Of a DNA stretch of 64,000 bases, positions 15,224-32,242 are shown in pieces (position 1 is the stretch's first letter; every line of letters begins with the position of its first letter). The notes under the pieces were generated by a model. The model did no database searches, was not told the origin of the DNA, and saw nothing but the letters and a program-made list of their open reading frames with translations. The stretch spans positions 7,302 to 71,301 of the forward strand of contig CAYILR010000020.1 of NCBI GenBank assembly GCA_964364175.1, in the 5' to 3' direction. The stretch comes from an uncultured Bacteriovoracaceae bacterium. Lineage in GTDB: Bacteria; Bdellovibrionota; UBA1018. Made by a program: the position numbers and the translations under genes.

Positions 15224-15984
15224 AAAATGAAAAATTTAAATCTGCTTTCGGATCAGGAGCTCGTTCAACACACCCAAAGTTTAGTTTGCGAAGAACAAAA
15301 ACTGGTGGCTCAGGTTTTGGATTGCCTGGAGGAGGTTTTTGCTCGGAGGCTCTATCTCAAAATGGGCTACAGCTCGATGTTTGAATTTTGTAAGAATGAA
15401 TTGGGTTACAGTGACGGAACAGCTCAGATCCGGATCGATGCGTTAAAACTCACTCAGCTTCTTCCAGAGGTCAAAGAGGACATCCTAAAAAATAATGCGA
15501 CGATTACTCAGGCTGCTTTTTTGAATAAATTTCTTCGTCAGGAAAAAAAGATTACGAATGTAGAACGGCCGATCGAAGAGAAAAAGAACAGGACAAAACC
15601 CGAATCATCGGTCCAGACAAAACTCAAATTCAATTTGTTGTGGATAGCGAGTGTGCCGAGTTGATGGAACGGTTCAAAGAATTGTATCCTCAAGATTCGA
15701 GCCAGTACGTTGAGCTTTTTAAAAAGGCTCTCCAGATCGCGCTCAAAGCAAAGGATCCGAAAGAAAAATCCAAATCTAAAATTGAAGATTCACTTCACAC
15801 ATATGAAGTGAAAAAGCGTCCGTACATTTCCATCCCAGTCAGACGTGAGTTGCTCCGTTTGGCTCAAGGCGGTAGCTCGGAACCTAGCAATCTCACTGTG
15901 CTTTGCGCAGCCCACAACGCTTTCCGTGCAGTGGAAGAATATGGTGTTCAAAAAATGCGGCCGTTCTTGAGAGGGTTGAAGTAA
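15224..15984 (+). pseudogene. Frameshifted DUF222/HNH endonuclease-like gene
   Basis: Two overlapping ORFs in different frames (15164..15664 and 15640..15984) together rebuild one protein. The N-terminal part is homologous to the fragment at 54190, and the C-terminal part carries an HNH-like motif (GGSSEPSNLTVLCAAHN) whose cysteines are degenerated. Confidence 0.55.
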
Positions 15985-16173: not shown

Positions 16174-17118
16174 ATGCGGAGCGGAGGGGGAGCACAGAGC
16201 CAGATGAATCTAGAATCCATTGTTCGCGGTGAATTTGTGATTAATGCGGCGTACGGCATCTTGGGGCTAGCGGTTTTTATCGTCGCTCGAATGATCTTGC
16301 AGGAGCAAGAGACTCGCGCTGCCCAGGACAATATGGACGATCGCGACCGCAAGCCCAGCAGTGGCTTGGTGGGGCTGACTCGTCCATTTTTCACGCAATA
16401 TATTGTTCCCATGGTGCGAGGAAAGGCGTTTTGGGACAATAAGCGCCGTGATTTCAGACGCTTGATTATTTCTGCAGGCTTAAAAGAAGAATTAACTCCG
16501 GATGAATTCATTGCGTTCAAATTTTTCCTGATCGTATTTTTCCCATTAGTGGGCGGGATTTTGAAGGCGATGGATATGCTCGACGTCAGTGCTTTGACGG
16601 TTTTGGGCTCTGGAGTCGCAGGATGGTTTTATCCGAATTTCTGGGCAAATGGTCGAGTGGCGCGACGTCAAAAAGATATTCTGAAAGCAATGCCATTCAT
16701 CGTGGATTTGCTCGCACTTTCGACTGAAGCAGGATTGGATTTCGTCGGTGCGATCGGAAAGGTTTGCGAAAAGGCTGTTCCCAGTCCCCTGGTTGAGGAA
16801 TTGGGGCAAATGTTGAAAGAAATCAAAGTGGGATCCTCACGCCAGGAAGCGCTTCGCGAGATGTCGCTTCGGATCAATATGAAAGAAGTCAGTTCTTTCG
16901 TCGCGATTCTGATTTCAGCCGACCAAATGGGGGCGTCGATCGGAAAAACTCTTCGTCAACAATCTGAACAAATTCGAAACGCACGTATTATCGCTGCGGA
17001 AAAAGCGGGTGCTGCTGCATCACAAAAAGTCTTGTTGCCCATGGTGATATTTATTCTACCATGTGTATTTATTATGATTTTCGGACCGTTCGTTCTGGAG
17101 ACGCTCAATCAAAAATAA
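16174..17118 (+). CDS. tadC: Tad pilus assembly protein TadC (type II secretion system F family)
   Basis: It has a T2SS-F domain with 3-4 TM helices and is paralogous to the TadB gene at 31382. The true start may be MNLES at 16204. Confidence 0.75.
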   Translation: MRSGGGAQSQMNLESIVRGEFVINAAYGILGLAVFIVARMILQEQETRAAQDNMDDRDRKPSSGLVGLTRPFFTQYIVPMVRGKAFWDNKRRDFRRLIISAGLKEELTPDEFIAFKFFLIVFFPLVGGILKAMDMLDVSALTVLGSGVAGWFYPNFWANGRVARRQKDILKAMPFIVDLLALSTEAGLDFVGAIGKVCEKAVPSPLVEELGQMLKEIKVGSSRQEALREMSLRINMKEVSSFVAILISADQMGASIGKTLRQQSEQIRNARIIAAEKAGAAASQKVLLPMVIFILPCVFIMIFGPFVLETLNQK

Positions 17119-17122
17119 AACC

Positions 17123-17515
17123 ATGCCCAAAACCAAGAACACCCCCATCACTGTCGAACTCGTTAAGACTCATGTCAAAATTGCCGATCAGTGCCATGTG
17201 GCGGTGTCTTATATGGACCGTCTGAGGGGGTTGATTGGACGCCAATCATTGCCTGTGGGGGAGGGTGTGCTCTTCCCTCGGTGCAATAGCATCCATATGT
17301 GGTTTATGAGTATTCCAATTGATGTCGTTTTCTTGGACAAGTCGATCCAGGATGGCAATCGGTCCATCTGGAGGGTGACTTCTGTTCACGAGTCGGTGCG
17401 CCCTTGGAAGGCTCTGCCACTGAATGACTGGGCTGCAGCTGATGTGCTCGAATTGCCGGTAGGGACCATTCGACGACATTCTATTTATCCAGGAGACGAA
17501 ATATGTTCAAGCTGA
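17123..17515 (+). CDS. DUF192 domain protein
   Basis: The core SIHMWFMSIPIDVVFLD matches DUF192/COG1430. The 3' end overlaps the next gene. Confidence 0.6.
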   Translation: MPKTKNTPITVELVKTHVKIADQCHVAVSYMDRLRGLIGRQSLPVGEGVLFPRCNSIHMWFMSIPIDVVFLDKSIQDGNRSIWRVTSVHESVRPWKALPLNDWAAADVLELPVGTIRRHSIYPGDEICSS

Positions 17516-19146
17516 CGGTGGTCGCCGGACCTAACCGGGGCAGCAATTTCGTCGTGCAAGAGGGTGAGACAAGCATCGGTCGTCAGACAGGCAATGTGAT
17601 TGTGTTGCCCTCTTCAAAGGTTTCAAAAAAACACTGTTCGATCAATGTCAAAGACGGTGAAGTCAGCATCAAAGATGAGGGAAGTTCCAATGGGACTTTC
17701 GTGAATGGAGTTCTGACTCGTGCCAAGAAGCTCAACCCAGGCGATCGTATTGGAGTGGGAGATTTTGTTTTTGAAATTTCTGTTCCGGGTCTCAGAACGA
17801 ATCGGATTGCTCCCGCCCTGACAGGTTTTGGAAATGTTGTAGCAATGCCTGGAGTTTCGTTGCCAGGGACTGCGGCAAATGCAGCGGCATCCCCAGCGCT
17901 TACGGGTTCGATTGATTTGTCCTCGGCAGGGTCAGCAATGGATCCCAACGTGATGCCCAAAGATCCCAAAGGGAAGATCATTTGGCTTTTTGAAAATCGA
18001 CTGATGCCTGTTTTTTATGGTTTGATTTTGAAGCACGAGTGGAAAATCGTCGGCTTGGTCATGATGGGCGGGCTCTTGCTTGCGAATTTGATTGTGGCTG
18101 TTCAGCCAATTGTGCAGTCCGGAAGAAACGCAATGGTCCGAGAGACTATGAGGCGTGCGAGTTTGATCGCTAAACAAATTGTAGAAAAAAATTCAGCGGC
18201 CATGCTGAATCGCGCTGAAACAAAAACTGAAATTGGCAGTTTGGAGCGAGAAGACGGTGTTCGCATGGCGGTGCTCACCGATCTGGATTTGCGTGTGATC
18301 GCGCCAGGCACGAAAATGAATCAATACATCACGAGCGGTGGCGAGGCTGCAGAAGCCACTCGGGCGCGAAATGCGTTCCGGAAAGGCCGCGAAACTGGGA
18401 TATTCATGGAAATCGGAGACGGAATCGTAGTGGCCATTGAGCCAATGAAGATTCTGGATGCTTCGATTGGAAAAAATGTGGTTGTCGCAATGGCGATTGT
18501 GTCGATCGATGCCACTCTTTCGACTCCTGAAATCGGAGAAGTCGGGGTGACTTATTCTGAGACTCTGATCCTGACAGGGTTGATCACTCTGTTGGTTTTC
18601 TTGATTCTTTATAAGCTGACACTCAAGCCGTTGAATGTTTTGAACGATGACATCGATCGAGTTCTCAAGGGCGAAACCAATCAGGTCACCCGTGAATTCA
18701 AGTTCGAGGAGATTGGCAATTTGATCGACAACATCAATTCTGCTCTCCAAAGAATTCCGCGAGGCTCAGGCGGCGCGACCGTGGATAACTCCGGTGGGCC
18801 GGATGATTTCCTCAACCCGGTCAAGATCCTGCTGACTCTCACTAAAGTCGGTGTGTTGATTTTGGATGATCAGAAGAAAATCTTGGGGCTCAATCCATTT
18901 TTCGAGGAGATTTCCGGGATACGCTCGGACGGCTCGATCGGGCAAGAACCCAGCGCAGTGGCAAGGGATCAAGCTTTTGCACAGATGTCGGTGGATATGC
19001 TGAATCGGGCTCCTTCGGGTGGAGAGGGAGTGACGGAGGATTTCGATTTTTCTGGAGTGGCGTGCAAGATCTTTGTTTCAGCTTTGGGGACATCTGGAAC
19101 GGCCCCAAAAGGTTACATGATGCTGGTTTCGAGGAGTGAAACGTGA
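17503..19146 (+). CDS. FHA domain-containing membrane protein
   Basis: The N-terminal FHA domain is recognisable (SIGRQ...SKKHCSI...SSNGTFVNG). It is followed by two TM segments and a long C-terminal region. Confidence 0.8.
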   Translation: MFKLTVVAGPNRGSNFVVQEGETSIGRQTGNVIVLPSSKVSKKHCSINVKDGEVSIKDEGSSNGTFVNGVLTRAKKLNPGDRIGVGDFVFEISVPGLRTNRIAPALTGFGNVVAMPGVSLPGTAANAAASPALTGSIDLSSAGSAMDPNVMPKDPKGKIIWLFENRLMPVFYGLILKHEWKIVGLVMMGGLLLANLIVAVQPIVQSGRNAMVRETMRRASLIAKQIVEKNSAAMLNRAETKTEIGSLEREDGVRMAVLTDLDLRVIAPGTKMNQYITSGGEAAEATRARNAFRKGRETGIFMEIGDGIVVAIEPMKILDASIGKNVVVAMAIVSIDATLSTPEIGEVGVTYSETLILTGLITLLVFLILYKLTLKPLNVLNDDIDRVLKGETNQVTREFKFEEIGNLIDNINSALQRIPRGSGGATVDNSGGPDDFLNPVKILLTLTKVGVLILDDQKKILGLNPFFEEISGIRSDGSIGQEPSAVARDQAFAQMSVDMLNRAPSGGEGVTEDFDFSGVACKIFVSALGTSGTAPKGYMMLVSRSET

Positions 19147-20225
19147 AGAATGCACTGAGATTCAGAAAAAATCTGCTGGAGCCTCAGGAGGGCGAAGTGG
19201 CGCGGCTGAAAGTAGTGCAGGGTCCTGATTATGGATCGGTCTATGTTCTGCGAGGCAGCCCGGTGAGCATTGGGCGAGGGGAAGATTGCGACGTGATGTT
19301 GACCGATTTGAAAACATCGCGAAAGCACGCCACCGTGCACTTGACCGGAAATCACTGGACAGTCAAGGATCTGGGAAGCGCCAATGGGATCAAGGTGAAT
19401 GGTGAGCATTCGGCAGGTTCTCCCATCTACACTGGGGATAGCGTGGGTTTGGGTGAAACGATTCTAGAGTTTTTTACACGAGAATCAGATACTCGGTTGA
19501 TTGTTGCTGCCCCAAGAACTGTGACGGAGTTGCAATCCAGCCAGCAACTGCTGCTTGATCGAAAAAACGAAATCCGAGCAATCGGAAAAGTGAAAGGCCC
19601 CACTCGTGCTTCAGCTGCAGCGAGAGTTCAAACGGGGCCAGCTCCCGCTACTGACGCCAGTCCGGTCGAAAAAATTAAATTTTGGGTTCAGAACAATAAA
19701 AAAATAGCAATCGCTGGGGCAATTGGACTCGTGGTGCTCATGATGATGGGGGATGATCCGCCTAAAAAGAAGGTCGCAAAAAAGAAGCCGGAGGCAGAGA
19801 GGGATTTAGCGAATTTTTTGCCATCCGATGATCCCGTGATTGAGAAACAAGCAGATGTTTTTTTTCGGGCGGGTTGGCGAGAGTACCGCGAGATGAATTA
19901 CTTGCGTGCAAAGTCCGAGTTTGAAACGGTTCTGCAAATGGCCCCCGGCCATAAGATGGCGCGCTTGTATTTAGATAAATCGACTAAGTCCATAGAAGAG
20001 TTGGTTCAAAATCATTTGGGAAAAGGGAAAAAAAATCAGTCATCTGGAAAGCTGAAGGCAGCAAAAGGAAATTACGAAGCTGTGATGCGGCTGTTGTACA
20101 GAGACCAAACAAATTCTGCCTACGTGGAAGCAAAAGACCAATTAGAAAAAGTGATTAGAGAGATCAAAGGTGAAAAAGAACCGGCCCGTGCTCCAGCAGC
20201 AACGGACAAGGGGGGATCTAACTAA
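19143..20225 (+). CDS. FHA domain-containing protein
   Basis: It carries an FHA domain (VSIGRGEDCDV...SRKHATV...SANGIKVNG), a central TM helix and a TPR/coiled-coil-like C-terminus. Confidence 0.8.
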   Translation: MKNALRFRKNLLEPQEGEVARLKVVQGPDYGSVYVLRGSPVSIGRGEDCDVMLTDLKTSRKHATVHLTGNHWTVKDLGSANGIKVNGEHSAGSPIYTGDSVGLGETILEFFTRESDTRLIVAAPRTVTELQSSQQLLLDRKNEIRAIGKVKGPTRASAAARVQTGPAPATDASPVEKIKFWVQNNKKIAIAGAIGLVVLMMMGDDPPKKKVAKKKPEAERDLANFLPSDDPVIEKQADVFFRAGWREYREMNYLRAKSEFETVLQMAPGHKMARLYLDKSTKSIEELVQNHLGKGKKNQSSGKLKAAKGNYEAVMRLLYRDQTNSAYVEAKDQLEKVIREIKGEKEPARAPAATDKGGSN

Positions 20226-22492
20226 TGGGTGCAGCCGCACTTCTCACGATTAGTCGCAATGGCGAAAACATTCGATCTCAATCGATCGAAGGTGAGAGTG
20301 TGCTTGGCCGTTCTGACGATTGCGATATTCGCCTGGATGATCGCGCAGTATCACGGCAACACGCAGTTTTGCGGGTCGTTGGGGATGGAGTGCAAATTGA
20401 GAAAAAAAGTGATTTTGCTCCGTTGATAGTGAATGGGGCAGAATGCACGCAGGCGGTGGTCAAAGAGGGGGATGTCATTTCGATTGGTCCCTACTTGATG
20501 AGAATCGCTATGAGCAAAAAGGAAGCCGCGCCGTCGGCTGAAATTACACAAGCTACCGAGACACCGCAAACCCCAGAGGCGGCAGAGCCACCGGTTGACG
20601 GAGTTGCTGAGAATTCTGCCGAGGCACCTGCGCCCTCAGAGGAGGGAGTTGCCCAATCGACGCCGGCAGAAGGTGAATTTGCCACAGCAGAAGCTGTGGG
20701 AGTGGAGACTCCTGCTGGCGAAGTGCCATCGGATCAGCCCTCTGGATTTTTGGCCGATGATGGGGATGGAAAAACCCGGGTTGGAGCCTTGCCAAAAATT
20801 GTTGCCATGCTTCGCGTGACGGCTGGATTGAGTTCGCACGAGGAGCTCGCAATCAATAAACCTGAGATGACTATTGGTCGGGGTCAGAATTGTGATCTAG
20901 TGATTCAGGATAAAAAATCATCCAGAAAACATGCAGTCATCCGGCAAAGCGGAATCCGATACATCATCAAAGATCTGGATTCTGCCAACGGAACTTTGTT
21001 GAACGGGCAAGCCATTCAAGAGCACGAATTGTCCAGCGAGGATGTCATCAAGATTGGTGAAACTGAGATCAAGTTCCTCGCCTTGAATCAAGACTACGAA
21101 GAACAGAAGAAAGACTTCATTCAAGTGACTCCAGATTTGGATGAGATGCCTGCAGATGAGCCTGTGGACATGGGGCAGGGGCTCGCCCTGTCTGGGATGG
21201 AATCACTCGGCAATGCTCCGGGTCCATCTGTGGCAACACAGCAGACGGCATCCGGAACTGGCGGTTTGTCTGGAATGATTTCTGGAATTGCTGGATTAGG
21301 TGGTTCTGGGAAAACTCCAGGCAAGAAGCAGTCCTTGATGGAAAAATTCCGAGCCATGCCTCCCAAGCGCCAGGCAATTGTGGGTGCATTGGTGTTGGCG
21401 TTGCTCTGGTTTGTGTTTGAGGACGATCCAGAACCAGTCAAAAAGGTGAAAAAGAAAAATGCAGCAGTTGCAACGAATGGAGCGCCTGGATCCGCTGCAT
21501 CGGGATTGCCTGTGGATGCAGAGACCAAGCGACGGATGGATTTTCAAAGGCTGACCGGTGAGCAGAAAAAATTCATCGAGGCACAGTATGCCCTGGCATT
21601 TGATTATTATCGTAATAAAGAATACGACAAAACTTTGTTCGAATTAGAGAAAATTTTTGTCTTGGTTCAGGACTACGAGCGCGCCAGAGAGATCGAGAGT
21701 TACGCGAAAGAAGGCAAACGCAAAACGGAAGCCCTCCAAGAAGAAAAGCGCCGAAAAGACGAGGAAGAAAAGTTCAAGAAAAAGGTCCAGGAATTTGAAA
21801 AAGACCTGCAAGCTTCGGTCAATAAAAAGGACTACGAGAAGGCCAAAGAAATCATGGCTGAGCTATTGACCCTCGATCCTGAGAACGCCGGCGTAAAAAG
21901 CGCCAAAAAAGCGATCGAAGCATTTGAAGACCAAAAGCGCATGGAAGAGCAGCAAAAACAAGTGCAGATGGAAATCAATACTCGAGCCAAGGACATGTAC
22001 AAGCAATCGAAAAAATACCAAGACGAAGGCCGCTGCTATGATGCGATGGACGGAGTTCAGAAAATTGGGGAAATTGGTGCCACTGAGCTGGAGCCCATCG
22101 AGCAGGCGAAAAAATTGATCACTGAATGCCAAAGCTCCATTCGAAAAAGGCGGGATCCGATTCTTGCGAAGGCTAAGCAGAAAGAACAGGCTGGCGAATA
22201 CCGGGAGGCTTTCGAGCTTTATCGAAAAGCTACCCGCGCAGATCCTCGGCACGGAGCTGGCTATGCAGGAATGAATCGGATCCGAGACACACTTCACCAG
22301 ATGGCGAAGATCATTTACACGGAAGGTGTGTTTGCTGAGAGCTACAGCGATTTCAAGATAGCGCAGGATAAATTCAGAGAGTGCATGTCCGTGGCCCCAG
22401 AAGATGATCATTACTACGAGGTTGCAAAAAAACGCCTCGCTAAATATCTCCGCGTTTCGAAACGTAAACCCGCAGAGGAAAGTGCAAAATGA
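20225..22492 (+). CDS. Protein with two FHA domains, a TM helix and a long coiled-coil/TPR-like tail
   Basis: The first FHA domain is VLGRSDDCDIRL...SRQHAVL and the second is MTIGRGQNCDLVI...SRKHAVI...SANGTLLNG. Between them lies a Pro/Ala/Glu-rich linker. Confidence 0.8.
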   Translation: MGAAALLTISRNGENIRSQSIEGESVLGRSDDCDIRLDDRAVSRQHAVLRVVGDGVQIEKKSDFAPLIVNGAECTQAVVKEGDVISIGPYLMRIAMSKKEAAPSAEITQATETPQTPEAAEPPVDGVAENSAEAPAPSEEGVAQSTPAEGEFATAEAVGVETPAGEVPSDQPSGFLADDGDGKTRVGALPKIVAMLRVTAGLSSHEELAINKPEMTIGRGQNCDLVIQDKKSSRKHAVIRQSGIRYIIKDLDSANGTLLNGQAIQEHELSSEDVIKIGETEIKFLALNQDYEEQKKDFIQVTPDLDEMPADEPVDMGQGLALSGMESLGNAPGPSVATQQTASGTGGLSGMISGIAGLGGSGKTPGKKQSLMEKFRAMPPKRQAIVGALVLALLWFVFEDDPEPVKKVKKKNAAVATNGAPGSAASGLPVDAETKRRMDFQRLTGEQKKFIEAQYALAFDYYRNKEYDKTLFELEKIFVLVQDYERAREIESYAKEGKRKTEALQEEKRRKDEEEKFKKKVQEFEKDLQASVNKKDYEKAKEIMAELLTLDPENAGVKSAKKAIEAFEDQKRMEEQQKQVQMEINTRAKDMYKQSKKYQDEGRCYDAMDGVQKIGEIGATELEPIEQAKKLITECQSSIRKRRDPILAKAKQKEQAGEYREAFELYRKATRADPRHGAGYAGMNRIRDTLHQMAKIIYTEGVFAESYSDFKIAQDKFRECMSVAPEDDHYYEVAKKRLAKYLRVSKRKPAEESAK

Positions 22493-23211
22493 ACTTACCT
22501 GTCAAAGCACAGGCTGTCTTTCATTCGCCAGGGAAAAGGAAAATCCAGGAGGATTTCGCTTTGAGCATGCCTCAGAAATCTATCTTTGTCATGTGTGACG
22601 GATTTGGAGGAGGAAACTCTGGAATTCAAGCAGCGAAATCCGCTTGCGATTCTGTAAAAGGGTTTTTGGAGAAAGAGGCGGGGGATTTAGAGGCGACTCT
22701 TCCATTCGTGCTGCGAAGCTACTACTCATTGGCCGGAAATGTTTTGTTTAATGCTCTGATTCACGCAAATCGGAAGGTCAATCTGCTGAACAAGGGCAAG
22801 AATGTTCATGAAAAAGGCGGAGCTTCTGTGCTGGCCGGATTCATGGATGGGGATTTGCTGGCTTTGGCAAATGTCGGAGCCTGCACAGCATGGCTAATCA
22901 GGGATGGGGGTGCTACCGAGATCGTTGTGCCCAGAACGTATGGACGATTGGTGAATCCATTTCATGATGGCCCTGATTTGTACGGCCAAGCGCCTCTCAT
23001 GGCTGTAGGGATGGGCGAGGATGTTGAGCCGGAGATTTTTGAATGCAGGTTGCATTCAGGGGATTGCGTTCTTCTGATGACCGATGGGGTTACAGCTGAA
23101 GAGCGGGGTAAACTATTTCAGTTGATTCCGGATGGTCCTCAGGCCATCGAAAAAAATCTGAAAAATCAAAAATTTGATGACAATGCCTCTGTTTTAGCCA
23201 TTTATTTCTAA
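22489..23211 (+). CDS. PP2C-family Ser/Thr protein phosphatase
   Basis: It has the PP2C motifs MCDGFGGGNSG and LLMTDGV, and it overlaps the preceding FHA gene by 4 bp. Confidence 0.8.
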   Translation: MNLPVKAQAVFHSPGKRKIQEDFALSMPQKSIFVMCDGFGGGNSGIQAAKSACDSVKGFLEKEAGDLEATLPFVLRSYYSLAGNVLFNALIHANRKVNLLNKGKNVHEKGGASVLAGFMDGDLLALANVGACTAWLIRDGGATEIVVPRTYGRLVNPFHDGPDLYGQAPLMAVGMGEDVEPEIFECRLHSGDCVLLMTDGVTAEERGKLFQLIPDGPQAIEKNLKNQKFDDNASVLAIYF

Positions 23212-23280: not shown

Positions 23281-24348
23281 TTGGAGAGCTATCTTATGAA
23301 CGGTGATCGTATAAACTATTATCGAGCGGGTTGGGTGACTCTTATCCTATTGCAGACATCAGTGCCTGCGTGGGCTGTGAGTGTCGATAGTGCCTTCGGA
23401 ATCAGGATGACGGGCGCCGTTCCGGCGGGCTGCCCCTATGATGAGGTTTCCAGAAAATTGGTGCGAAAAGATCTTGAGGATCAATATGGTAGCTTAAATC
23501 AAAAGCCAAGCAAGAAGGAAGATGAAGAGGACCCAGTTGATAGTCCTACGGTAATCAATCTGACTCAGTATTATCGATCGATTTGTGAGAACACGACCAC
23601 AGCAATGAACGATGTTTTGACTGCTATTCAAGAGACTCAGTTGGATAGAACGCTTTGTATCGCATTGAATAATCCGAATGGCCCAATTAAGCAGAATGTA
23701 TTTCAGAATAAATTTAATTTAGAGATGAGACGTCGATTTACTGCAAGAAGATTCCCATCTGGCCCTGTGGGGAATGAAGGAGCGAGGTATGAGGGACAGA
23801 CTGATATTGGTTTCAGTGCAGAGATGAGAGAATGGGGTTACACTGAGTTTGCGCATGGATATAATAAAAATTATGTTGTGAAAATTTGTACCAATTCATT
23901 GATTAGTACGAAACCTCCTAGGTCTAGGCGCATTTCGGTTCCTGGTCCTTCTGTTGATAATCAATATTGTGTTGATGTAAAATTAATAGACAAATTGAAA
24001 TGCGAGGGTAATTCCCCAAAACCGTTGGAATTGTATCAGACGGGGGATGTTTGTAAAAATTTTCCAGGCATTCCGGACGATGTTAAAAATGGTGCTTTTG
24101 GTCCGAGTGTAGCGGTAGGAAGCTCGCTGGAAAATTTCCTGCTTGCTAGTGGATATCCTCAGGCGTGCATTGATTTGGATAAGCAAGAACCGATCGGTGA
24201 ACAGAAAAAAGACAGCAGCGGCTCATCAGTCAGCGGGAGCATGCGCAAGCGCATCGAAGATCGCGGAGTGGTTTATCAAGAAGAAAGTTCTGGAAGGGCG
24301 TCCCGCGCTCCCTCATCAAAGAGGCGTGTCAAAACGGACACAGAGTGA
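23281..24348 (+). CDS. Secreted Cys-rich hypothetical protein
   Basis: It has a signal peptide and many cysteines. I recognise no known domain. Confidence 0.45.
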   Translation: MESYLMNGDRINYYRAGWVTLILLQTSVPAWAVSVDSAFGIRMTGAVPAGCPYDEVSRKLVRKDLEDQYGSLNQKPSKKEDEEDPVDSPTVINLTQYYRSICENTTTAMNDVLTAIQETQLDRTLCIALNNPNGPIKQNVFQNKFNLEMRRRFTARRFPSGPVGNEGARYEGQTDIGFSAEMREWGYTEFAHGYNKNYVVKICTNSLISTKPPRSRRISVPGPSVDNQYCVDVKLIDKLKCEGNSPKPLELYQTGDVCKNFPGIPDDVKNGAFGPSVAVGSSLENFLLASGYPQACIDLDKQEPIGEQKKDSSGSSVSGSMRKRIEDRGVVYQEESSGRASRAPSSKRRVKTDTE

Positions 24349-24369: not shown

Positions 24370-24399
24370 TTGACAAATTATATACAATATTCATATAAT
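24370..24399 (+). promoter_or_regulatory. Near-consensus sigma-70 promoter for the first flp pilin gene
   Basis: TTGACA lies at 24370-24375 and TATAAT at 24394-24399, separated by an 18-bp spacer. An RBS GGAAGGAG lies 5 nt before the ATG at 24423. Confidence 0.5.
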
Positions 24400-24422: not shown

Positions 24423-24614
24423 ATGAGCATCCAAGCATTTCTCAAAAAGCTTTGGAAAGACGATCAGGGGCAATCGACGACGGAATACATCCTGATTCTT
24501 TCTGTGGTCGTGATGATCGCGATGAAATTCAGAAAAGAATTCGGCGACCGTTTGACCAAAATCACGGGTAAACTCGGTGAAGAAATTGAATCACAAACTT
24601 CTCAGGGCAACTAG
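24423..24614 (+). CDS. flp: Flp family type IVb pilin
   Basis: The 63-aa product carries the Flp motif GQSTTEYILIL and a hydrophobic stretch. Confidence 0.8.
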   Translation: MSIQAFLKKLWKDDQGQSTTEYILILSVVVMIAMKFRKEFGDRLTKITGKLGEEIESQTSQGN

Positions 24615-24807
24615 CAGGCTCTTGAAGGACGAAAGCGGCCAAGCAATCACGGAGTACATGCTCCTCTTATCAGCATGTGTTGTAGGTGCAGCTACGTTTA
24701 CTCGCAAATTGCTCGGAGTTCTGGATTTAGGGATCGCACGTCTGGGCGGACAACTCGAACAAGATCTTAAAACCGGAAGGACTGGCTTGAGTGCATGGAA
24801 AAACTGA
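24577..24807 (+). CDS. Flp family pilin, second paralog
   Basis: It carries the motif GQAITEYMLLL. The annotated ATG overlaps flp-1, so the true start may be a downstream TTG. Confidence 0.6.
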   Translation: MKKLNHKLLRATSRLLKDESGQAITEYMLLLSACVVGAATFTRKLLGVLDLGIARLGGQLEQDLKTGRTGLSAWKN

Positions 24808-25336
24808 GCTTTTTCAAGGCGCAGTCATTGCCATCTCGCTCTTAGCAGCGGGATCGGATTTGGTTCGAGGAAAAATTTACAACTTATTGACCATACCAGC
24901 CCTCATCGCTGGTGTGGTTTTTTCGTTTTGGGTGGGAGGCTGGGAGGCTGGGCTCAACAGTGGGCTTGGAATCGCGGCCGGATTGCTCCTCTATGGCTGG
25001 ATGTTTTGGATTGGAGTCATGGGAGGCGGGGACGTGAAGCTGCTCATGGCATTGGGTGCTTGGGGAGGAATAGGCTATGTCGTTGAAACAGGTTTGGTTG
25101 CTGTTTTTCTGGGTGGGTTGTTAGGAGCCATTACCCTTGTTTTCAAGGGTCGAATGAAAAGTTTCATTGAGAAAATCAGGATGACATTGATGAGCGTGGT
25201 CGTGAAGCAGCTCGAATATATCCCTCCGAAAATCGATTACAAATTGACGATGCCCTACGGAGTTCCTATTGCCATCGCGGCGATTTGGTCAGCATTCGCG
25301 GACCCACTGGCTCAGCTGGGATTGAAACTATGGTGA
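24791..25336 (+). CDS. cpaA: Prepilin peptidase CpaA/TadV (A24 family)
   Basis: It is a multi-TM protein with the conserved motif GGGDVKLL. Confidence 0.8.
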   Translation: MHGKTELFQGAVIAISLLAAGSDLVRGKIYNLLTIPALIAGVVFSFWVGGWEAGLNSGLGIAAGLLLYGWMFWIGVMGGGDVKLLMALGAWGGIGYVVETGLVAVFLGGLLGAITLVFKGRMKSFIEKIRMTLMSVVVKQLEYIPPKIDYKLTMPYGVPIAIAAIWSAFADPLAQLGLKLW

Positions 25337-25605
25337 GAGACAGAAAAGACTCAGAGAGCGGTCAGGCTATCGTCGAGTATATTCTGATGATGTCCGTCGT
25401 TGTGATGGGTTTCATGCTGCTCTCTCGTGGATTGGTTAAAATTAAATTTGCGGAAAAGATGATGAGTCCGATTACCGGAACCTATGCTCGAACCTACCAA
25501 TACGGCCATCCCAAGGGAAAAGGTTATGACGATGGGGGTCCAGAAAATCATCCCCGTGCGAGGGGCGGCAATAATTTCCGACTATTTTTAAATCCAAGAT
25601 GGTGA
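25330..25605 (+). CDS. Flp/TadE-like prepilin, third paralog, with an extended C-terminus
   Basis: The ORF track starts at 25285, but the likely start is MVRDRKD at 25330. It carries the motif SGQAIVEYILMM. Confidence 0.5.
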   Translation: MVRDRKDSESGQAIVEYILMMSVVVMGFMLLSRGLVKIKFAEKMMSPITGTYARTYQYGHPKGKGYDDGGPENHPRARGGNNFRLFLNPRW

Positions 25606-26174
25606 AAAAATTAGATCAGATGAGATTCAGTAAACGCCGTAAAAAAAATGAATCGGGGCAAACCACAGTCGAATTTGCCCTGACTTTGGTTTTTGCGATG
25701 TCGGTCGTATTTTTTTACATCCAGCTCAGCCTGGTTTTGGCTTTTAGTAATTATGTCCAATACGCCACTTTTATGGCAGCGAGAGCCTACTATGCGGGAA
25801 GTGCTTCGCACGGTGATCAAATCAAAAGAGCAGAAAATGTCATCAAGCGTATGCTCAAAAGGGGCGTTGACGCCCCCGGAGCAGATCGATTTCCGTCTAT
25901 AGCCAAAGGTACTGGAGATGGCGATCTCAAAGGTGCTAAAATCGGACCTCATGACAAATTTAGCCCGACAACAAGGGACTATAGTTGGCTGGAGGGAGTC
26001 CGATACACATTTAGGAGCCGCATTTTCATGATCCCCATGGGGGGGTCTCAGAAAAGTGACAAGGTCAATTCTGTGACACTAACGTCGGAAAGCTGGCTCG
26101 GACGGGAACCTTCGGTAGATGATTGTGCTGGATACATGTCAACATTCCCAGCGATTATTGACAACGGCTGCTGA
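25599..26174 (+). CDS. TadE-like pseudopilin
   Basis: The N-terminal TadE-like motif is GQTTVEFALTL followed by a TM segment. Confidence 0.65.
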   Translation: MVKKLDQMRFSKRRKKNESGQTTVEFALTLVFAMSVVFFYIQLSLVLAFSNYVQYATFMAARAYYAGSASHGDQIKRAENVIKRMLKRGVDAPGADRFPSIAKGTGDGDLKGAKIGPHDKFSPTTRDYSWLEGVRYTFRSRIFMIPMGGSQKSDKVNSVTLTSESWLGREPSVDDCAGYMSTFPAIIDNGC

Positions 26175-26685
26175 CGAGGCAGGCCAAAGTGTCATTGAAT
26201 TTATTTTCATGCTGCCGCTGATGGTGGGCATGGCCGTTATTCTTCTTCGGGTCAATACGGTGATTCAAATTGGAATCGTGAATCAGAAATATGCGCGTGC
26301 GCAAGCACTTTGGATGGCATTCAATAGTGCGTATTATCCAAGGGCCGAGGACGTTATAAAAGATTTTATACCCAACAAATATAATAAAATGGTCATTGGT
26401 GTTGGGGGCGAGCAAATCCCTGAAGAGGGGCTTGGAGTTCCTCCCGCTAGCACCTACAAAATTGCCAGAACCAAACGAACAGAAAAAATTGGTAGCACTG
26501 CCGATCAAGAAGAACCGAAAGAACGAATCGAGGTTCGAGTGAGAAATACGGTCACGCTTTGCACGCAGCTCAATTTTTTCAGGATCGGCACTACTGAAAC
26601 ACCCGCGAACCCGGCCAATCCTGAATATCGCGTTCCACCCGAGGGCGTGGGAATGGATTTCTGTAGGGGGCCAAGTGAACAATAA
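26119..26685 (+). CDS. TadE/TadF-like pseudopilin
   Basis: It carries GQSVIEFIFMLPLMV. The annotated start overlaps the upstream gene by 56 bp, so the real start is likely the TTG at about 26158. Confidence 0.6.
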   Translation: MIVLDTCQHSQRLLTTAADEAGQSVIEFIFMLPLMVGMAVILLRVNTVIQIGIVNQKYARAQALWMAFNSAYYPRAEDVIKDFIPNKYNKMVIGVGGEQIPEEGLGVPPASTYKIARTKRTEKIGSTADQEEPKERIEVRVRNTVTLCTQLNFFRIGTTETPANPANPEYRVPPEGVGMDFCRGPSEQ

Positions 26686-27511
26686 AGCATTAACTCTTTC
26701 GCTCGTCATGGCAGTCATCGCGGTGTTTTTCGTGCAAAGCTACGTCACGAGCATCGAGGAAGAGGCGCGCAAAAAATTTGGGACCGAGGTTCTTGTGGTC
26801 AAGGCGAAACGAGACATCAAGGAGCAAGAGACCATCAACGAAACGCATTTGCAGCTAGTGGCCATCCCAAAAACATTTCTGGAACCTGCATCCGTGTTCT
26901 TTGAGAAAAAAGAAGAAGATGCTGAGTCCCGCAAGGGCATGGCTGCGCTTTCTGGAACGGTTGCGATGGTACCGATCAAAAGTGGTGAGCAAATGACTTA
27001 CAACAAAATCGTGGAGCCGAGCATACGCACTGGGCTGGCTCCGCAGATTGCTCCAGGACGCAGAGCGATCTCTGTCACAGTGAGCGATGTCACCGGAGTC
27101 TCAAAATTAGTTAAACCCGGCGATCGGATCGATCTGGTGGCCGTGATGGACACAGGGGGCGGGAAAGAAAACAGAATTGCAAAAACCATCCTTCAGGACG
27201 TTGTAATTTTGGCAGTGGGGAAGAACGTGACCAATAACGTTCCACGCATTCTTCAGGATGATGGTTCAGGTAAACCTAGGGTCAAATCATTGGTAGAGGA
27301 CACAAGCTTCGGAACCATCACATTGGAGCTCGATCCCACCCAAAGCCAGGCACTGGCACTGGTCATGACTAACTCCGAAAACGTTTTGGTGGTGACACTC
27401 AGGAACAATGACGACATCGATCGTCAGGCAACCGGTGTCACTACTTTGAATGATGTTTTGGGTGCAGATGTTGCAAAGCGGGCACCCGCAGGAGCAGGTG
27501 GAAAAAAATGA
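26675..27511 (+). CDS. cpaB: Flp pilus assembly protein CpaB/RcpC
   Basis: It has an N-terminal TM anchor followed by a SAF-like domain and a CpaB C-terminal domain. Confidence 0.8.
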   Translation: MNNKALTLSLVMAVIAVFFVQSYVTSIEEEARKKFGTEVLVVKAKRDIKEQETINETHLQLVAIPKTFLEPASVFFEKKEEDAESRKGMAALSGTVAMVPIKSGEQMTYNKIVEPSIRTGLAPQIAPGRRAISVTVSDVTGVSKLVKPGDRIDLVAVMDTGGGKENRIAKTILQDVVILAVGKNVTNNVPRILQDDGSGKPRVKSLVEDTSFGTITLELDPTQSQALALVMTNSENVLVVTLRNNDDIDRQATGVTTLNDVLGADVAKRAPAGAGGKK

Positions 27512-29205
27512 TGATGAGTTTCATCGGGACTAAACCCCTTCGGGTATGCTTACTCTTTCTTTGGATAGCATCGATGGGGCAGGTGTATGCTCAGGATGCG
27601 GCCGCACCTGCAGCAAGTGCTGACAGCACCGAGCAACAGTTTGAAGGTGGATCCAACAAGGGCATGGGCGCAGTGGCTGTTCCTGGTAAAAAAAATTACA
27701 GACGTTCTCGATTAACTCACGATGAGTCCGAAGGAAAAGCGGACAAGCGCTATGTGTTGCTCGCGACAGGCGAAGATCGAGCGGTCGATCTGGACTTTGA
27801 GGCCAACGCGGGTGCAAACGGAATTTCCATTGGTAACCCTCAAGTGGTGACCACGACGTTGGTGAAAATTGGTGAGAAGCGGCAAATTGTTTTTAAACCT
27901 CTGAAGGCCGGAGAGACCAACGTCACCGTTCGCGACAATGATGGAACATTGAGGCTGATTTTTGCAGTTCGCGTGTCAGGTTCCAATATGCTGAGAAGCG
28001 CGGGTGAGTTGCGCGAATTGCTCAAAGACATTGAAGGCATCGAGATCAAAATCGTGGGTCCGAAAATCATCGTCGATGGGGAGATACTTGTTCCCGGAGA
28101 TTATGCACGCATGATTTCTGTGATTTCAGACCCAGTCTATGCGCCCAATATTATGAATTTGACCACACTTTCTCCCCTGGCGATGACGATGCTCGCAGAA
28201 AGAATCCAACAAGACATCAGCACTTTCGCGGAGAACGTCAAAACTCGAGTGGTCAATGGGATGATTTTTTTGGAGGGAGAAGTTGACGACGTGGATAAAG
28301 CCAGGCGCGCAGCTGAGGTCGCCAAGCTGTACCTGCCTGAAGCAAAACCAGGAAACCCGATTCAAAGCCGAGATCCGACTGCGCAAGTGATTCAAAATCG
28401 CGGTTTGGTTCAAAACTTCATCGTTGTGACACCTCCGCCGCCTAAGAAACAAGAAAAATTAGTTCGTGTGACCATTCATTTTGTCGAGTTGGCGAAGGAT
28501 TACACCAAAGTATTCGGGTTCAAATGGCAGCCGGGATTCACCGCGGACCCACAAATCACAATTGGAACCACTCAAACAGGTGGCACAGGTGCGCAGGCGA
28601 ATGGCAGCAACGGAAACGCTTCTTTTACCGCAACGATTTCCAGCTTGTTCCCAAAGCTCAGCAACGCTCAAAACGCAGGTTATGCCAGAATTTTAAAAAC
28701 AGGCACTCTGATGACTCGCAGCGGACAGCCCGCCACGCTCAATGAACAAACTAATATTCCATTCAGTGTCATGGGACCCAACGGACAGGCCGCCTCCACT
28801 CAAGCGAATGTGGGCTTGACGGTTGCTGTTACTCCTCTGATCCTAGGGCAAAGCGAAGATATTCAGCTCGATTTAGATCTGAACCAAATCAATCTGACTG
28901 GAAAAAGCGGATCGGTTCCCATTACCGCCTCGCATGCGATCAAAACAAAACTCTATGTAAAATCCAGCGAGAGCGCTGCTGTCGCTGGTGTGATTTCGCA
29001 AGACGTCGGAACTGATTTCAACAAGGACGATCCGAGCGCCGTTGCCCAGGGTGGGCAGACGAGTCCGCTGTTCACGCTCATGCATTCGAAGTCCTACCGA
29101 AAAAAGAAATCCCAATTCGTTATTTTTGTGACTCCACAAATCATCGAAAACGCATCTGACGGCAGCGATGATATGAAGAAAAATTTCAGAGTGAAGGTGA
29201 AATAA
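27508..29205 (+). CDS. cpaC: Tad secretin CpaC/RcpA
   Basis: It has a signal peptide and a C-terminal secretin domain (LFTLMHSKSYRKKKSQFVIFVTPQII). Confidence 0.85.
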   Translation: MMMSFIGTKPLRVCLLFLWIASMGQVYAQDAAAPAASADSTEQQFEGGSNKGMGAVAVPGKKNYRRSRLTHDESEGKADKRYVLLATGEDRAVDLDFEANAGANGISIGNPQVVTTTLVKIGEKRQIVFKPLKAGETNVTVRDNDGTLRLIFAVRVSGSNMLRSAGELRELLKDIEGIEIKIVGPKIIVDGEILVPGDYARMISVISDPVYAPNIMNLTTLSPLAMTMLAERIQQDISTFAENVKTRVVNGMIFLEGEVDDVDKARRAAEVAKLYLPEAKPGNPIQSRDPTAQVIQNRGLVQNFIVVTPPPPKKQEKLVRVTIHFVELAKDYTKVFGFKWQPGFTADPQITIGTTQTGGTGAQANGSNGNASFTATISSLFPKLSNAQNAGYARILKTGTLMTRSGQPATLNEQTNIPFSVMGPNGQAASTQANVGLTVAVTPLILGQSEDIQLDLDLNQINLTGKSGSVPITASHAIKTKLYVKSSESAAVAGVISQDVGTDFNKDDPSAVAQGGQTSPLFTLMHSKSYRKKKSQFVIFVTPQIIENASDGSDDMKKNFRVKVK

Positions 29206-29206
29206 A

Positions 29207-31369
29207 ATGGCGGGACATTTAATCGCAGTTGTAGGCGGAAAGGGTGGGGTTGGAAAAAGCGTCTTCGCTGCCAATCTTGCTATTGCGCACTTACAGAACT
29301 TTAAACAAAGACCATTGATCATAGATCTGGATCTTTCCAGTTTGGGTGATCAGAATATTATTCTTGGCCAGAATCCACCCAAAACGATCATTGAACTCAC
29401 CAAGGCACAAGGAATTAGCATCGATCCCAAAGGGCTTGCACCGTTTATGCTAAACGCGCCTGCAGGATATTCTTTTATCGGTGCACCCAAAGATGCGATT
29501 CTCGCTCGCGATTTGGACATGGATGGCCTGGGACGGCTGATGAAATCTATTACCAATGTATTTAATTTGGTGGTTGTGGATTGTGGAAATGGAATGGATC
29601 CCCATGCACTAAAAGTCATGGAATATGCCACGGCAATTTTTGTGGTGACTACAGCAGACGTGATTGTCATCAACCAAACCAAGAGAATTCTGACTAAGAT
29701 TCAAGAGCTGCTTTTTCCGCCAGAAATGGTTCAAATTGTGATCAATAGATATTCCGCAAATAGCATCGTCAATCCACAGCTGATTCAGAAAAACCTGGGT
29801 CGAGCTATTTTCGGAGCAATCCCCGATGATCCCATGACAGCAGATAGCTCGCTGGCAAAAAGCACGCCGATTTGCCTGGCAGTGCCGAGTTCTCCCTCGG
29901 CCAAGGCGTATCATGAGATGGTTCGAAAAATGCAACAAGTGGGGTTGCTGGATAAATTAGCGCAACTCAAAAAGCCAACAGGCGTTGTTGCAAAAGCAGC
30001 AGCGGGTGCAGGCGGTGCTGAAGCGCCTAAGGAAGGTTCTCAAGCTGCGGGAGGTCCGGGTGGACGAAGTTCTTCGGCCGCAGCGGATCCATGGACTTCG
30101 ATGAAATTGAGAATTCACAAAGGTCTAGTGGAGCAGATGGATCTTAAGAAAATGACTACGAATACGGATGATCCCAAGCAAAAATCCATCCTGAGAGAAA
30201 AAACACAAAAAGTAATCTTGGATATTTTGGCAGTGGAGGATGCTGGAGCCCTTTTGGGAACTCGTGAGCTGAAGGCGCAAATTGTGAAAGAAGTCCTGGA
30301 TGAGGCTTTGGGGCTTGGTCCCCTCGAGGACTTTCTCGCTGACGATAGCGTGACTGAAATTATGGTCAACGCAAGAAATCAAATTTATCTCGAAAAAGCC
30401 GGCAAGGCCATGCTCTCAAAAATAACTTTTTCGAGCGAGCTTCAAATGATGAACATTGTAGAACGGATTGTGACACCGCTCGGGCGTCGCGTGGACGAGA
30501 AAGTTCCCTATTGCGACGCTCGTTTGCAGGATGGGTCTCGAGTGCATGTGATTATCCCTCCTTTGGCGCTTCGAGGGCCAACTATTACAATTCGAAAATT
30601 TCCAAAAAAGAGAATTTTGCCAGAAGACTTGGTGACCTTCGGATCGATGACTCAGGAGATTTGTGATTTCCTCCGATGTTGTGTCGAGGCAAAATTAAAT
30701 ATTGTGGTTTCTGGTGGTACTGGATCAGGAAAAACTACTTTGCTGAACGTGCTATCCAGCTTTATTCCAGCGACAGAGCGTATCATTACTGTGGAGGATT
30801 CCGCAGAGCTTCAGTTGGTTCAGGATCATGTGGTTCGTCTCGAAACACGACCCAAGAACATTGAAGGTGAGGGTGAAGTCAGTATTCGAGATTTGATTAA
30901 ATGCTGCCTCCGAATGAGGCCAGATCGTATCGTAGTCGGTGAGTGTCGGGGCGGAGAGACGCTGGATATGTTGCAGGCAATGAATACAGGGCACTCAGGA
31001 TCCCTCACGACGTTGCATGCCAATAATCCTCGCGAGTGCCTGGGTCGTATCGAGACACTGTGTATGATGGCAGGATTGGCGCTGCCACTCAAAGCAATTC
31101 GAGAAACATCAGCGGCGGCCGTCAATTTGATTATTCAACAAAGTAGATTGAATGATGGAGCCAGAAAGGTGACTTACATCACTGAGGTCACCGGGATGCA
31201 GGGCGAGGTCATTAGCTTGCAGGATATTTTCTTATTTAAACAAGAGGGGCTTGATAAAAAAAGGAAAATCATCGGTCGATTTGTTCCTACCGGGTTTATT
31301 CCGAAATTTGTTGAGGATATGGAAGCTAAGGGTATGAAAATTTCTAGAGGACTTTTTGCCGCAAAATAA
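29207..31369 (+). CDS. Fusion protein: N-terminal MinD/ParA-like CpaE(TadZ) ATPase domain plus C-terminal CpaF/TadA secretion ATPase
   Basis: Residues 1-260 carry a deviant Walker A (GGKGGVGKS). After a Gly/Ala-rich linker, residues 300-720 form a complete CpaF with Walker A GGTGSGKTT and the motif GHSGSLTTLHANNPRE. The reading frame is continuous for 720 codons. Confidence 0.8.
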   Translation: MAGHLIAVVGGKGGVGKSVFAANLAIAHLQNFKQRPLIIDLDLSSLGDQNIILGQNPPKTIIELTKAQGISIDPKGLAPFMLNAPAGYSFIGAPKDAILARDLDMDGLGRLMKSITNVFNLVVVDCGNGMDPHALKVMEYATAIFVVTTADVIVINQTKRILTKIQELLFPPEMVQIVINRYSANSIVNPQLIQKNLGRAIFGAIPDDPMTADSSLAKSTPICLAVPSSPSAKAYHEMVRKMQQVGLLDKLAQLKKPTGVVAKAAAGAGGAEAPKEGSQAAGGPGGRSSSAAADPWTSMKLRIHKGLVEQMDLKKMTTNTDDPKQKSILREKTQKVILDILAVEDAGALLGTRELKAQIVKEVLDEALGLGPLEDFLADDSVTEIMVNARNQIYLEKAGKAMLSKITFSSELQMMNIVERIVTPLGRRVDEKVPYCDARLQDGSRVHVIIPPLALRGPTITIRKFPKKRILPEDLVTFGSMTQEICDFLRCCVEAKLNIVVSGGTGSGKTTLLNVLSSFIPATERIITVEDSAELQLVQDHVVRLETRPKNIEGEGEVSIRDLIKCCLRMRPDRIVVGECRGGETLDMLQAMNTGHSGSLTTLHANNPRECLGRIETLCMMAGLALPLKAIRETSAAAVNLIIQQSRLNDGARKVTYITEVTGMQGEVISLQDIFLFKQEGLDKKRKIIGRFVPTGFIPKFVEDMEAKGMKISRGLFAAK

Positions 31370-31381
31370 GGTGAACTTGAA

Positions 31382-32242
31382 ATGAAAGTTTTAGGATTAT
31401 CACTATTGGGGATAGCGATTTTTTCTATTTCCTATATTTACAGTAAAAGATTTTTGGAATGGATGCGATTTCAGTCTCTTGGAACCAGAGACTATCTGGT
31501 TGAAAAACTGGCGTCGATGTTCATCGAAGTTTCTCCTGAGAAAGTATTGATGTATTTGGTGGGCGCTAGTGTTTTTGTGGGTGGTATTTTCTTTATTCTC
31601 CTTCTCCCGAACGTTCTATTAGGTTTGTTGATTGGCGGCATTTTTGGATCTCTGGTTTGGAAAATTCCCAGGCCAGTGGTCGACAAAATGTACGAAAAGC
31701 GCGTCGACAAATTTGTCCTTCAGATGGTGGACGGATTGGGATTGATGTCTAATGGGCTCAAGTCCGGGCTGTCTGTTGTGCAAGCTTTGGGTCTGGTCGC
31801 TCAGGAAATGCCAAACCCCATTCAGCAGGAATTCAATTTGATCCTGAGCGAGAACAAAGTGGGGGTATCCATCGAGGATGCATTCTTGAATCTATCAAAA
31901 AGGATCAAGGCGGACGACGTGGAGATGTTTGTGACCTCGATCAATATTTTGAAGGAGACCGGCGGAAATTTGGCGGAAACTTTCGATACGATTGTCGTTA
32001 CCATCCGAGAACGGATCAAGGTTCAGGCCAAAATATCGTCCATGGTCGCGCAAGGATTTTACCAGGGTGTCTTTGTGATGATGATTCCTCCCATATTGGG
32101 CGTGGTTTTTTACCAAACTGATCCCGAATTCATGAAACCCCTCTTCACAACTGCGATTGGATGGGGGATGATTTTGTTGATGGTCATTTTGGAGACGATC
32201 GGATTTTTTGTGATTATGCATATTATCAAAATTGAGGTTTGA
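31382..32242 (+). CDS. tadB: Tad pilus assembly protein TadB (T2SS-F family)
   Basis: It has a T2SS-F domain, three TM helices, and is a paralog of tadC. Confidence 0.8.
   Translation: MKVLGLSLLGIAIFSISYIYSKRFLEWMRFQSLGTRDYLVEKLASMFIEVSPEKVLMYLVGASVFVGGIFFILLLPNVLLGLLIGGIFGSLVWKIPRPVVDKMYEKRVDKFVLQMVDGLGLMSNGLKSGLSVVQALGLVAQEMPNPIQQEFNLILSENKVGVSIEDAFLNLSKRIKADDVEMFVTSINILKETGGNLAETFDTIVVTIRERIKVQAKISSMVAQGFYQGVFVMMIPPILGVVFYQTDPEFMKPLFTTAIGWGMILLMVILETIGFFVIMHIIKIEV

Follow-up and report, generated by a model that had tools for sequence, protein, structure and literature searches.

A conserved FHA and PP2C module beside Tad pilus genes

We found six co-directional genes (positions 16174 to 23211) in a 64,000-nucleotide stretch of DNA, hereafter the window, from an uncultured Bacteriovoracaceae bacterium (assembly GCA_964364175.1, contig CAYILR010000020.1, from a groundwater metagenome). 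A tadC gene of the Tad pilus is followed there by a DUF192 gene, three genes for FHA-domain proteins (named FHA_A, FHA_B and FHA_C) and a gene for a PP2C-fold protein. The Tad pilus is used by predatory bacteria to invade prey, and the Kil system of Myxococcus xanthus is a Tad-like machine for contact-dependent killing (Seef 2021, PMC8460266). The module in the window is not a chance neighbour of the Tad genes. It is moderately likely that it constitutes the accessory or regulatory half of a predatory (Kil-type) Tad machine and reads phosphothreonine (pThr) from a kinase acting in trans; judged from the sequences, such a phospho-signalling role is plausible. The domains, topology predictions, residue conservation, fold, synteny and lack of a kinase in cis were computed here, and the genetics and protein localisation are taken from the literature. 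What we infer is that threonines are phosphorylated, on which proteins, and by which kinase.

All six genes are on the forward strand, and every Pfam score given here for them exceeds the curated cut-off. The first gene, tadC (16174..17118, 314 aa; T2SSF, 60.4 bits), encodes a second T2SSF-type inner-membrane platform protein and lies apart from tadB. It is followed by the genes for a DUF192 (COG1430) protein (17123..17515, 130 aa; DUF192, 60.6 bits), FHA_A (17503..19146, 547 aa; FHA, 60.6 bits, and PAS, 24.8 bits), FHA_B (19143..20225, 360 aa; FHA, 54.4 bits), FHA_C (20225..22492, 755 aa; two FHA stretches, 111 bits, and TPR) and the PP2C-fold protein (22489..23211, 240 aa; PP2C_2, 27.7 bits against a cut-off of 24, and SpoIIE, 27.1 bits against a cut-off of 25). 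The hidden Markov model (HMM) search with Pfam thus bore out every domain that the initial annotation of this DNA, made from the sequence, had named: tadC, DUF192, PP2C and four FHA domains in three proteins. The open reading frame (ORF) coordinates also reproduce the overlaps of 13, 4, 1 and 4 bp that it had listed, and add a 4-bp gap after tadC. The overlapping stop and start codons indicate a predicted translational coupling of the module genes. In the DUF192 protein, no signal peptide or transmembrane (TM) segment was seen by sequence reading and a hydropathy scan. Its sole PDB relative is 3pjy, a structure of unknown function, and a literature search for DUF192 together with pili returned nothing relevant.

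Related loci were collected by scanning species-representative genomes with an 11-sequence alignment, which gave 50 loci, and four more came from contig look-ups. We annotated them by tblastn with the window proteins; 52 loci, from about 50 species-level genomes, carry the family. The series DUF192–FHA_A–FHA_B–FHA_C–PP2C is complete and in the same order in all 41 contigs that are long enough, and every incomplete five-gene core among the related loci coincides with a contig end. In 35 of 42 loci, tadC immediately precedes the DUF192 gene; it is displaced by 1.7–2.6 kb in two and was undetected upstream in five. On the other side, flp-cpa follow the module in 30 of the 32 loci reaching far enough, with the same gene order as in the window. 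This linkage persists at protein identities down to about 32%, and about 25% in one locus (L055). No tad genes come after the module in L027 and L031, and a response-regulator gene rather than a tad gene is next before the contig end in L055; in all three, the FHA genes are still with tadC. Because of the synteny counts and these split loci, we take the five genes of the core to be inherited as a unit, in most cases with tadC at the head and other Tad genes alongside. The earlier proposal of a link between the module and the Tad machine is therefore upheld by synteny in about 50 species-level genomes, and the genetics of Bdellovibrio bacteriovorus described below agree with it.

The family is large and nearly confined to one part of the bacterial tree. 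A word-indexed search with FHA_C yielded about 100 full-length relatives, nearly all labelled as metagenome-assembled genomes (MAGs) of Bdellovibrionota or Oligoflexia, and an exhaustive HMM search with the FHA_C family yielded more than 150 full-length cluster representatives (E < 1e-130). The carriers of the module itself are nearly all labelled Bdellovibrionota (Bdellovibrionales, Bdellovibrionia, Bacteriovoracaceae or Oligoflexia). A few module-carrying MAGs are labelled Lysobacteraceae, Methylotenera, Proteobacteria or Deltaproteobacteria, which we take to be loose binning labels. The labels of the carriers are thus in keeping with the restriction of Kil-type systems to predatory lineages (Myxococcales, Bdellovibrionales and Bradymonadales).

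A sigma-70 consensus promoter match (24370..24399, forward strand; TTGACA, an 18-nt spacer and TATAAT, 12/12) lies 24 bp upstream of flp. The evidence for it is the match to the consensus; the region has no more promoter-like sites than the shuffled expectation, and this one perfect match alone stands out. With its own consensus promoter, flp would imply at least two transcription units, as might be expected if the module belonged to a separate pathway (for example gliding, cyclic di-GMP signalling or a growth switch) that shares only neighbourhood and expression timing with Tad. The loci in which tadC is absent upstream (5/42) or displaced (two more) and those without flp-cpa downstream (2/32) would also suit such a pathway, as would a weak resemblance of the FHA domains to the gliding protein GltG. 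So would the mutants of B. bacteriovorus. Insertions in Bd0470 (Bd0470::tn), which is the Bdellovibrio TadC (Seef 2021, PMC8460266), and in Bd0474 (Bd0474::tn) both abolish prey killing, but the Bd0474 mutant attaches to prey without rounding it, unlike the tadC mutant, which does not attach (Duncan 2019, PMC6561027). We nevertheless regard a separate pathway as improbable. The linkage outlasts both the decay of protein identity to about 25–32% and the splitting of loci, where the FHA genes remain together with tadC, and the module genes are predicted to be translationally coupled. Furthermore, MXAN_4648 (FHA and TPR) and MXAN_4649 (FHA, PrgH-like) of M. xanthus are directly upstream of KilH (TadC), as tabulated together with KilD (FHA and TPR) by Seef 2021 (PMC8460266). 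KilD itself is located at the Kil machine and arrives at prey contacts before the pilus polymerises.

The FHA proteins and their phosphothreonine pockets

The pThr-binding signature (Gly-Arg, Ser-Arg/Lys-x-His and Ser-x-Asn-Gly) is invariant in FHA_A, in FHA_B and in the second FHA domain (FHA2) of FHA_C across 39–46 orthologues that are just 30–50% identical overall. The pThr-binding residues G26, R27, S41, H44, S61 and N63 of FHA_A are kept in 46/46 orthologues, and so are R45, S59, R60, H62 and S79 of FHA_B. The closest solved FHA structures are those of pThr readers, namely GarA, OdhI, FhaA, Rv1747 and Bdellovibrio DgcB, and the FHA domain of FHA_A fits GarA with a root-mean-square deviation of 0.8–0.9. 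We also considered GltG, TagH and SctD as identities for the FHA proteins and rejected them, as the NCBIfam scores are far under the cut-offs and the FHA domain alone is matched.

TM segments were found in all three FHA proteins (by a TM scan and in the FHA_A model), rather than in two of them as had been proposed. FHA_B consists of its FHA domain, a single TM segment (residues ~188–206) and a C-terminal TPR-like domain of about 150 aa that is predicted to be periplasmic. FHA_C has an atypical first FHA domain (FHA1), a linker, the canonical FHA2, a TM segment (~383–399) and a coiled-coil/TPR domain of about 350 aa. By prediction, FHA_B and FHA_C each cross the membrane once, and their periplasmic TPR-like parts are mutually related (hhalign probability 95%). 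The coiled-coil or TPR-like tails that the initial annotation gave to all three proteins are thus present in FHA_B and FHA_C, and FHA_A is instead a PDC–TM–HAMP–PAS sensor. Just ahead of FHA2, FHA_C carries a D-x-x-T-[KR]-[VIL] motif, whose threonine (T184) is invariant in 39/39 orthologues. A TadD-like pilotin role for the periplasmic TPR part of FHA_C, suggested by one JGI annotation, was rejected, as there is no NCBIfam TadD or PilW match.

FHA_A has an unusual architecture. In its AlphaFold2 (AF2) model (predicted local distance difference test score, pLDDT, 79.7), the FHA domain (1–93) is followed by a disordered linker, a TM segment, a periplasmic alpha/beta domain (~245–336), a second TM segment, a HAMP-like helix and a PAS domain (434–544). 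The top Foldseek match of residues 150–547 is the sensor part of WalK (model 9a5d_A, E 6e-14, 400 columns), and there are weak NCBIfam matches to WalK and ArsS. As modelled, the order TM, PDC/Cache-like extracytoplasmic domain, TM, HAMP and PAS is that of a WalK-like input module. Pfam detected no DHp or ATPase domain (HisKA, HATPase_c) in FHA_A, and the protein ends after PAS. Because these domains are lacking, FHA_A looks like the input module of a WalK-like sensor kinase, with the FHA domain as the one output that can be recognised.

The PP2C-fold protein

A profile of 28 orthologues of the PP2C-fold protein matches tPphA, a PP2C from a cyanobacterium, over its full length (E 1.4e-16), as well as Stp1, PstP and PppA of the type VI secretion system (T6SS). 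The AF2 model has a pLDDT of 91.5 and superposes on tPphA with a template-modelling score of 0.83 and on PppA with scores of 0.76–0.81. As modelled, the sixth gene of the module encodes a true PP2C fold. The window copy possesses all four M1/M2 metal ligands (D22, D37, D199 and D231) and the phosphate-binding R17. Across the family, D22 (motif 1) and D37 (motif 2) are kept in 38/40 and 39/40 orthologues. The phosphatase assignment of the initial annotation therefore stands for the fold and for the metal ligands of the window copy, with a reservation for the many orthologues in which catalytic residues are lost.

A loop specific to the family, E63-A-G-D-x-[ED]-A-T70-L-P-F-x-L-R-x-Y-[FY]-S-L-A, is invariant in 40/40 orthologues and is not found in tPphA. 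It falls within the least confident stretch of the model. A divergent clade (L028, L035–L038, L040, L043 and L044) has lost the acidic residues of motifs 8 and 11, and often the Arg too, and has kept EAGD-x-[ED]-ATLPF. The PP2C-like copies of L054 and L055 are beyond recognition by Pfam. Such decay of the site, or the failure of Pfam to recognise the fold, may explain why Bd0475, the presumed B. bacteriovorus counterpart, is annotated as a hypothetical protein.

Weighing of the phospho-signalling reading

Several observations count against phospho-signalling. The first is the lack of a kinase in cis. The HRDxKxxN motif is absent from all six frames of the window, Pfam found no Pkinase domain in window ORFs of at least 150 aa, and tblastn found no PknB-like kinase within 10 kb in the 52 related loci. 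We accordingly rejected a kinase in cis, both in the window and in all related loci, in agreement with the initial annotation, which had seen none in the 64 kb. The second is FHA1 of FHA_C, which has no Ser-x-Asn loop. Its Arg, Ser and His are kept, but 39/39 orthologues read [ED]-F-[AG]-P against S-L-N-G in GarA, and from its sequence FHA1 is probably not a canonical pThr reader. The third is the erosion of the PP2C site. The motif-8 Asp (D199) is kept in 24/40 orthologues and lost in 16/40, the motif-11 Asp or Glu (D231) is kept in 26/40 and lost in 14/40, and the phosphate-binding Arg (R17) is kept in 22/40 and lost in 18/40. The third-metal Asp of the GDSR motif (D119 in tPphA) is found in 0/40 orthologues, and the window copy reads NVGAC at this place. 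tPphA requires three metals for efficient catalysis (PDB entry 2y09). With catalytic residues eroded in many lineages, it is unlikely that catalysis alone is what the family has conserved. In addition, the literature searched contains no demonstration of phosphorylation in FHA–Tad systems, and the correspondence of the six genes to Bd0470–Bd0475 of B. bacteriovorus is one of published gene number, order, sizes and domain layout.

Part of this evidence would be expected if the FHA proteins were a pThr-independent scaffold, similar to the inner-membrane ring formed by SctD/YscD, with the PP2C-fold protein as a pseudophosphatase adaptor and no kinase involved. The Pfam model Yop-YscD_cpl scores as high as the FHA model on the FHA domains of the module, and the FHA–TM–periplasmic topology would suit a ring protein. 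The missing Ser-x-Asn loop of FHA1 in 39/39 orthologues, the erosion of PP2C catalytic residues in 35–45% of lineages beside an invariant non-catalytic loop, and the lack of a kinase in all loci also favour a scaffold. Still, we consider it rather unlikely. Invariant pThr pockets across 39–46 orthologues of 30–50% identity are hard to explain without ligand binding, and to our knowledge YscD lacks the residues of a pThr pocket. The SctD family model (NCBIfam TIGR02500) gives 22–36 bits against a cut-off of 86. Finally, 38–39 of 40 orthologues of the PP2C-fold protein retain the Asp of motif 1 and that of motif 2.

We therefore continue to prefer a regulatory module that reads pThr, which could work as follows. 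TadC would be the platform subunit, and the three FHA proteins would lie in the inner membrane with their FHA domains in the cytoplasm and their C-terminal parts in the periplasm. FHA_A would act as a WalK-like sensor with an FHA output in place of a histidine kinase, and the periplasmic TPR domains of FHA_B and FHA_C would contact other envelope proteins. A Hanks-type kinase encoded elsewhere may phosphorylate threonines of the machine; candidates are T184 in FHA_C and, in the PP2C-fold protein, the loop around T70. In the Bdellovibrio literature, Bd3148 has been proposed as a trans-acting kinase of the attack-phase prey encounter with several substrates, including DgcB. The canonical FHA domains could then bind the pThr marks and so assemble or license the Tad motor for a step after attachment. 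The PP2C-fold protein would dock on the FHA scaffold, and copies with an intact active site, such as the one in the window, might erase the marks. For the family as a whole, a docking role fits better than catalysis, and it agrees with the published prediction that Bd0475, a "hypothetical protein" of 228 aa, interacts with the 386-aa FHA protein Bd0473 (PMC12034629).

A more specific version, which we put forward tentatively and think has a minor chance of being right, is a transmembrane checkpoint without a described equivalent, again with the kinase elsewhere. Here FHA_A would sense the prey envelope, and the PP2C-fold protein would be chiefly a phospho-regulated docking partner rather than an enzyme, with its flexible T70 loop as the pThr ligand of FHA_B; together with T184, it would license the transition from attachment to invasion. 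A docking partner of this kind would explain why catalytic residues decay alongside an unchanging T70 loop.

Other genes of the Tad locus and its flanks

The core Tad genes of the window, assigned by Pfam, lie at 24423..32242 on the forward strand and comprise flp, an A24 prepilin peptidase gene, two TadE-like genes, RcpC/CpaB, a secretin gene, a TadZ–TadA fusion ATPase gene and tadB. The A24 peptidase gene (Peptidase_A24, 24791–25336, forward strand) is inside the tad locus in the window, as it is in the majority of related loci. The slot gave no A24 match in L035, L036, L037, L038, L040 and L043, and no A24 gene was called in L054. The ATPase (29207–31369, forward strand, 720 aa) has an N-terminal ParA/MinD (TadZ) part and no FHA domain. 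The 1.2 kb between the module and flp, noted in the initial annotation, is filled by an ORF of 355 aa (23281..24348, forward strand) without a Pfam match between the PP2C gene and flp, the latter having its own consensus promoter as described above. We tried this ORF as a member of the module and rejected it, since it is absent from all other loci. In relatives, the slot between the PP2C gene and flp varies from little or no spacer to an ORF of 550 aa (L002).

Directly after tadB follows a DUF6531/RHS/YD-repeat protein of 561 aa (32239–33924, forward strand), which is there in about 30 related loci, and then an ORF of 66 aa (33955–34155, forward strand) that begins like a signal peptide and ends in a low-complexity tail. 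By published description, these two are candidate counterparts of Bd0109 and Bd0108 of the hit locus. The next regulators (34174–39521) are an HD_5 (HD-GYP-like) protein, a histidine kinase with HAMP, HisKA and HATPase domains and a sigma-54 response regulator.

Just upstream of tadC, two overlapping ORFs of 166 and 114 aa (15164–15984, forward strand) with an HNH-like C-terminus have the appearance of a frameshifted gene. A partial copy with 49% identity is found near 54142, and the pair may be what is left of a mobile gene. In L002, L054 and L055, which are distantly related, a Glyco_hydro_3 (NagZ-like) gene is immediately upstream of tadC; it is absent from this place in the window. Further upstream, the window encodes a protein of 961 aa (12022–14907, forward strand) with an N-terminal WD40 propeller and a C-terminal part of 611 aa without a Pfam match, which is not conserved beside the module, and a GAF–sigma-54 activator (7747–9405).

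Comparison with known systems

The PpkA/Fha1/PppA pathway of T6SS resembles the module in that an FHA reader and a PP2C-fold protein are encoded together with a trans-envelope nanomachine, and an intact pThr pocket is present, by sequence, in three of the four FHA domains here. The pathway has one soluble Fha1, whereas the module has three membrane-anchored FHA proteins. In T6SS, the genes for FHA and PP2C are also accompanied by one for a Hanks Ser/Thr kinase, of which there is none in the window or in the 52 loci; the phosphatase site of the module is degenerate in many lineages, and T6SS genes are lacking. The SctD proteins (YscD/PrgH/MxiG) of the type III secretion system share with the window proteins an N-terminal FHA fold on the cytoplasmic side, one TM segment and a domain in the periplasm. 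Unlike SctD, the window proteins have a TPR-like periplasmic part in place of ring-building motifs, and their pThr pocket is conserved. In GarA, OdhI and Bdellovibrio DgcB, the FHA domain is a switch read by a pThr in the tail, and by analogy the T184 motif of FHA_C recalls this phospho-tail. The FHA proteins of the module differ from these in being membrane-anchored and multi-domain, and T184 is a candidate site only.

The closest likeness is to predatory Tad systems. As in M. xanthus Kil, where FHA or FHA and TPR genes (KilD, MXAN_4648, MXAN_4649 and MXAN_3104) are beside tadC or tadB homologues, FHA domains are over-represented beside the tad genes, with four in three genes of the module in 41/41 loci. 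Seef 2021 (PMC8460266) reported this over-representation in Kil/Tad clusters and, by analogy to T6SS, put forward a signalling cascade. There are also differences. The KilF ATPase has its own N-terminal FHA domain, whereas the ATPase in the window is fused to TadZ and has none; KilD is described as cytoplasmic, whereas the FHA proteins of the window have TM segments; and the Kil tables list no PP2C or DUF192 gene, unlike the window. Neither a phosphatase nor DUF192 in a predatory Tad/Kil context is mentioned in the literature searched on Kil and Bdellovibrio Tad.

In B. bacteriovorus, Bd0470–Bd0475 form one operon, and Bd0474 has two cytoplasmic FHA domains and an extracytoplasmic TPR part (2025, PMC12034629), which binds Bd0075 in the periplasm (PMC12034629). 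Like the module, Bd0470–Bd0475 are six co-directional genes with tadC first and FHA, PAS and TPR neighbours. In both sets, one protein has a single FHA domain (386 aa in B. bacteriovorus and 360 aa in the window), another combines two cytoplasmic FHA domains with a TM segment and TPR, and the last gene encodes a protein of about 230–240 aa. This last protein is annotated as hypothetical in Bd0475, whereas its counterpart in the window is recognisably PP2C. The matches listed from the word-indexed and exhaustive HMM searches (the best 150 in the latter) are MAG proteins, with none from strain HD100. The Tesseur 2026 preprint found the Tad machine to be essential for prolonged attachment and invasion, and described a TadZA fusion, a separate tadC locus, FHA/TPR/PAS neighbours and histidine-kinase neighbours of the tad genes.

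The initial annotation had regarded an FHA-linked Tad pilus as an undescribed architecture. This does not hold, as it is described in Seef 2021 (PMC8460266), in PMC12034629 and in the Tesseur 2026 preprint. The FHA–Tad link is already known and has been genetically tested in B. bacteriovorus and M. xanthus, and the window is a member from an uncultured lineage. For the question of how prey contact activates the Tad/Kil pilus, FHA proteins have been named in the field as candidates; a 2025 review calls them "promising candidates". The comparative data show DUF192, the three FHA proteins and the PP2C-fold protein to be a core that is constant throughout the loci examined, and T184, T70 and the kinase-less sensor are concrete targets for mutagenesis in the tractable B. 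bacteriovorus. These findings are incremental; they prompt experiments and leave the overall picture unchanged.

What is added here to the known systems is the PP2C identity of the last protein and its decay, the kinase-less WalK-like FHA_A, the two invariant threonines, the assignment of the canonical pockets and the finding that a contiguous arrangement is common. In HD100, the tadC locus is split from tad locus 1 and the tad loci have no TadV, whereas in the window all of these genes are contiguous and an A24 peptidase is present. Since the contiguous order of tadC, the module, flp-cpa and hit is the common arrangement in Bdellovibrionota, the split arrangement of HD100 is suggested to be derived.

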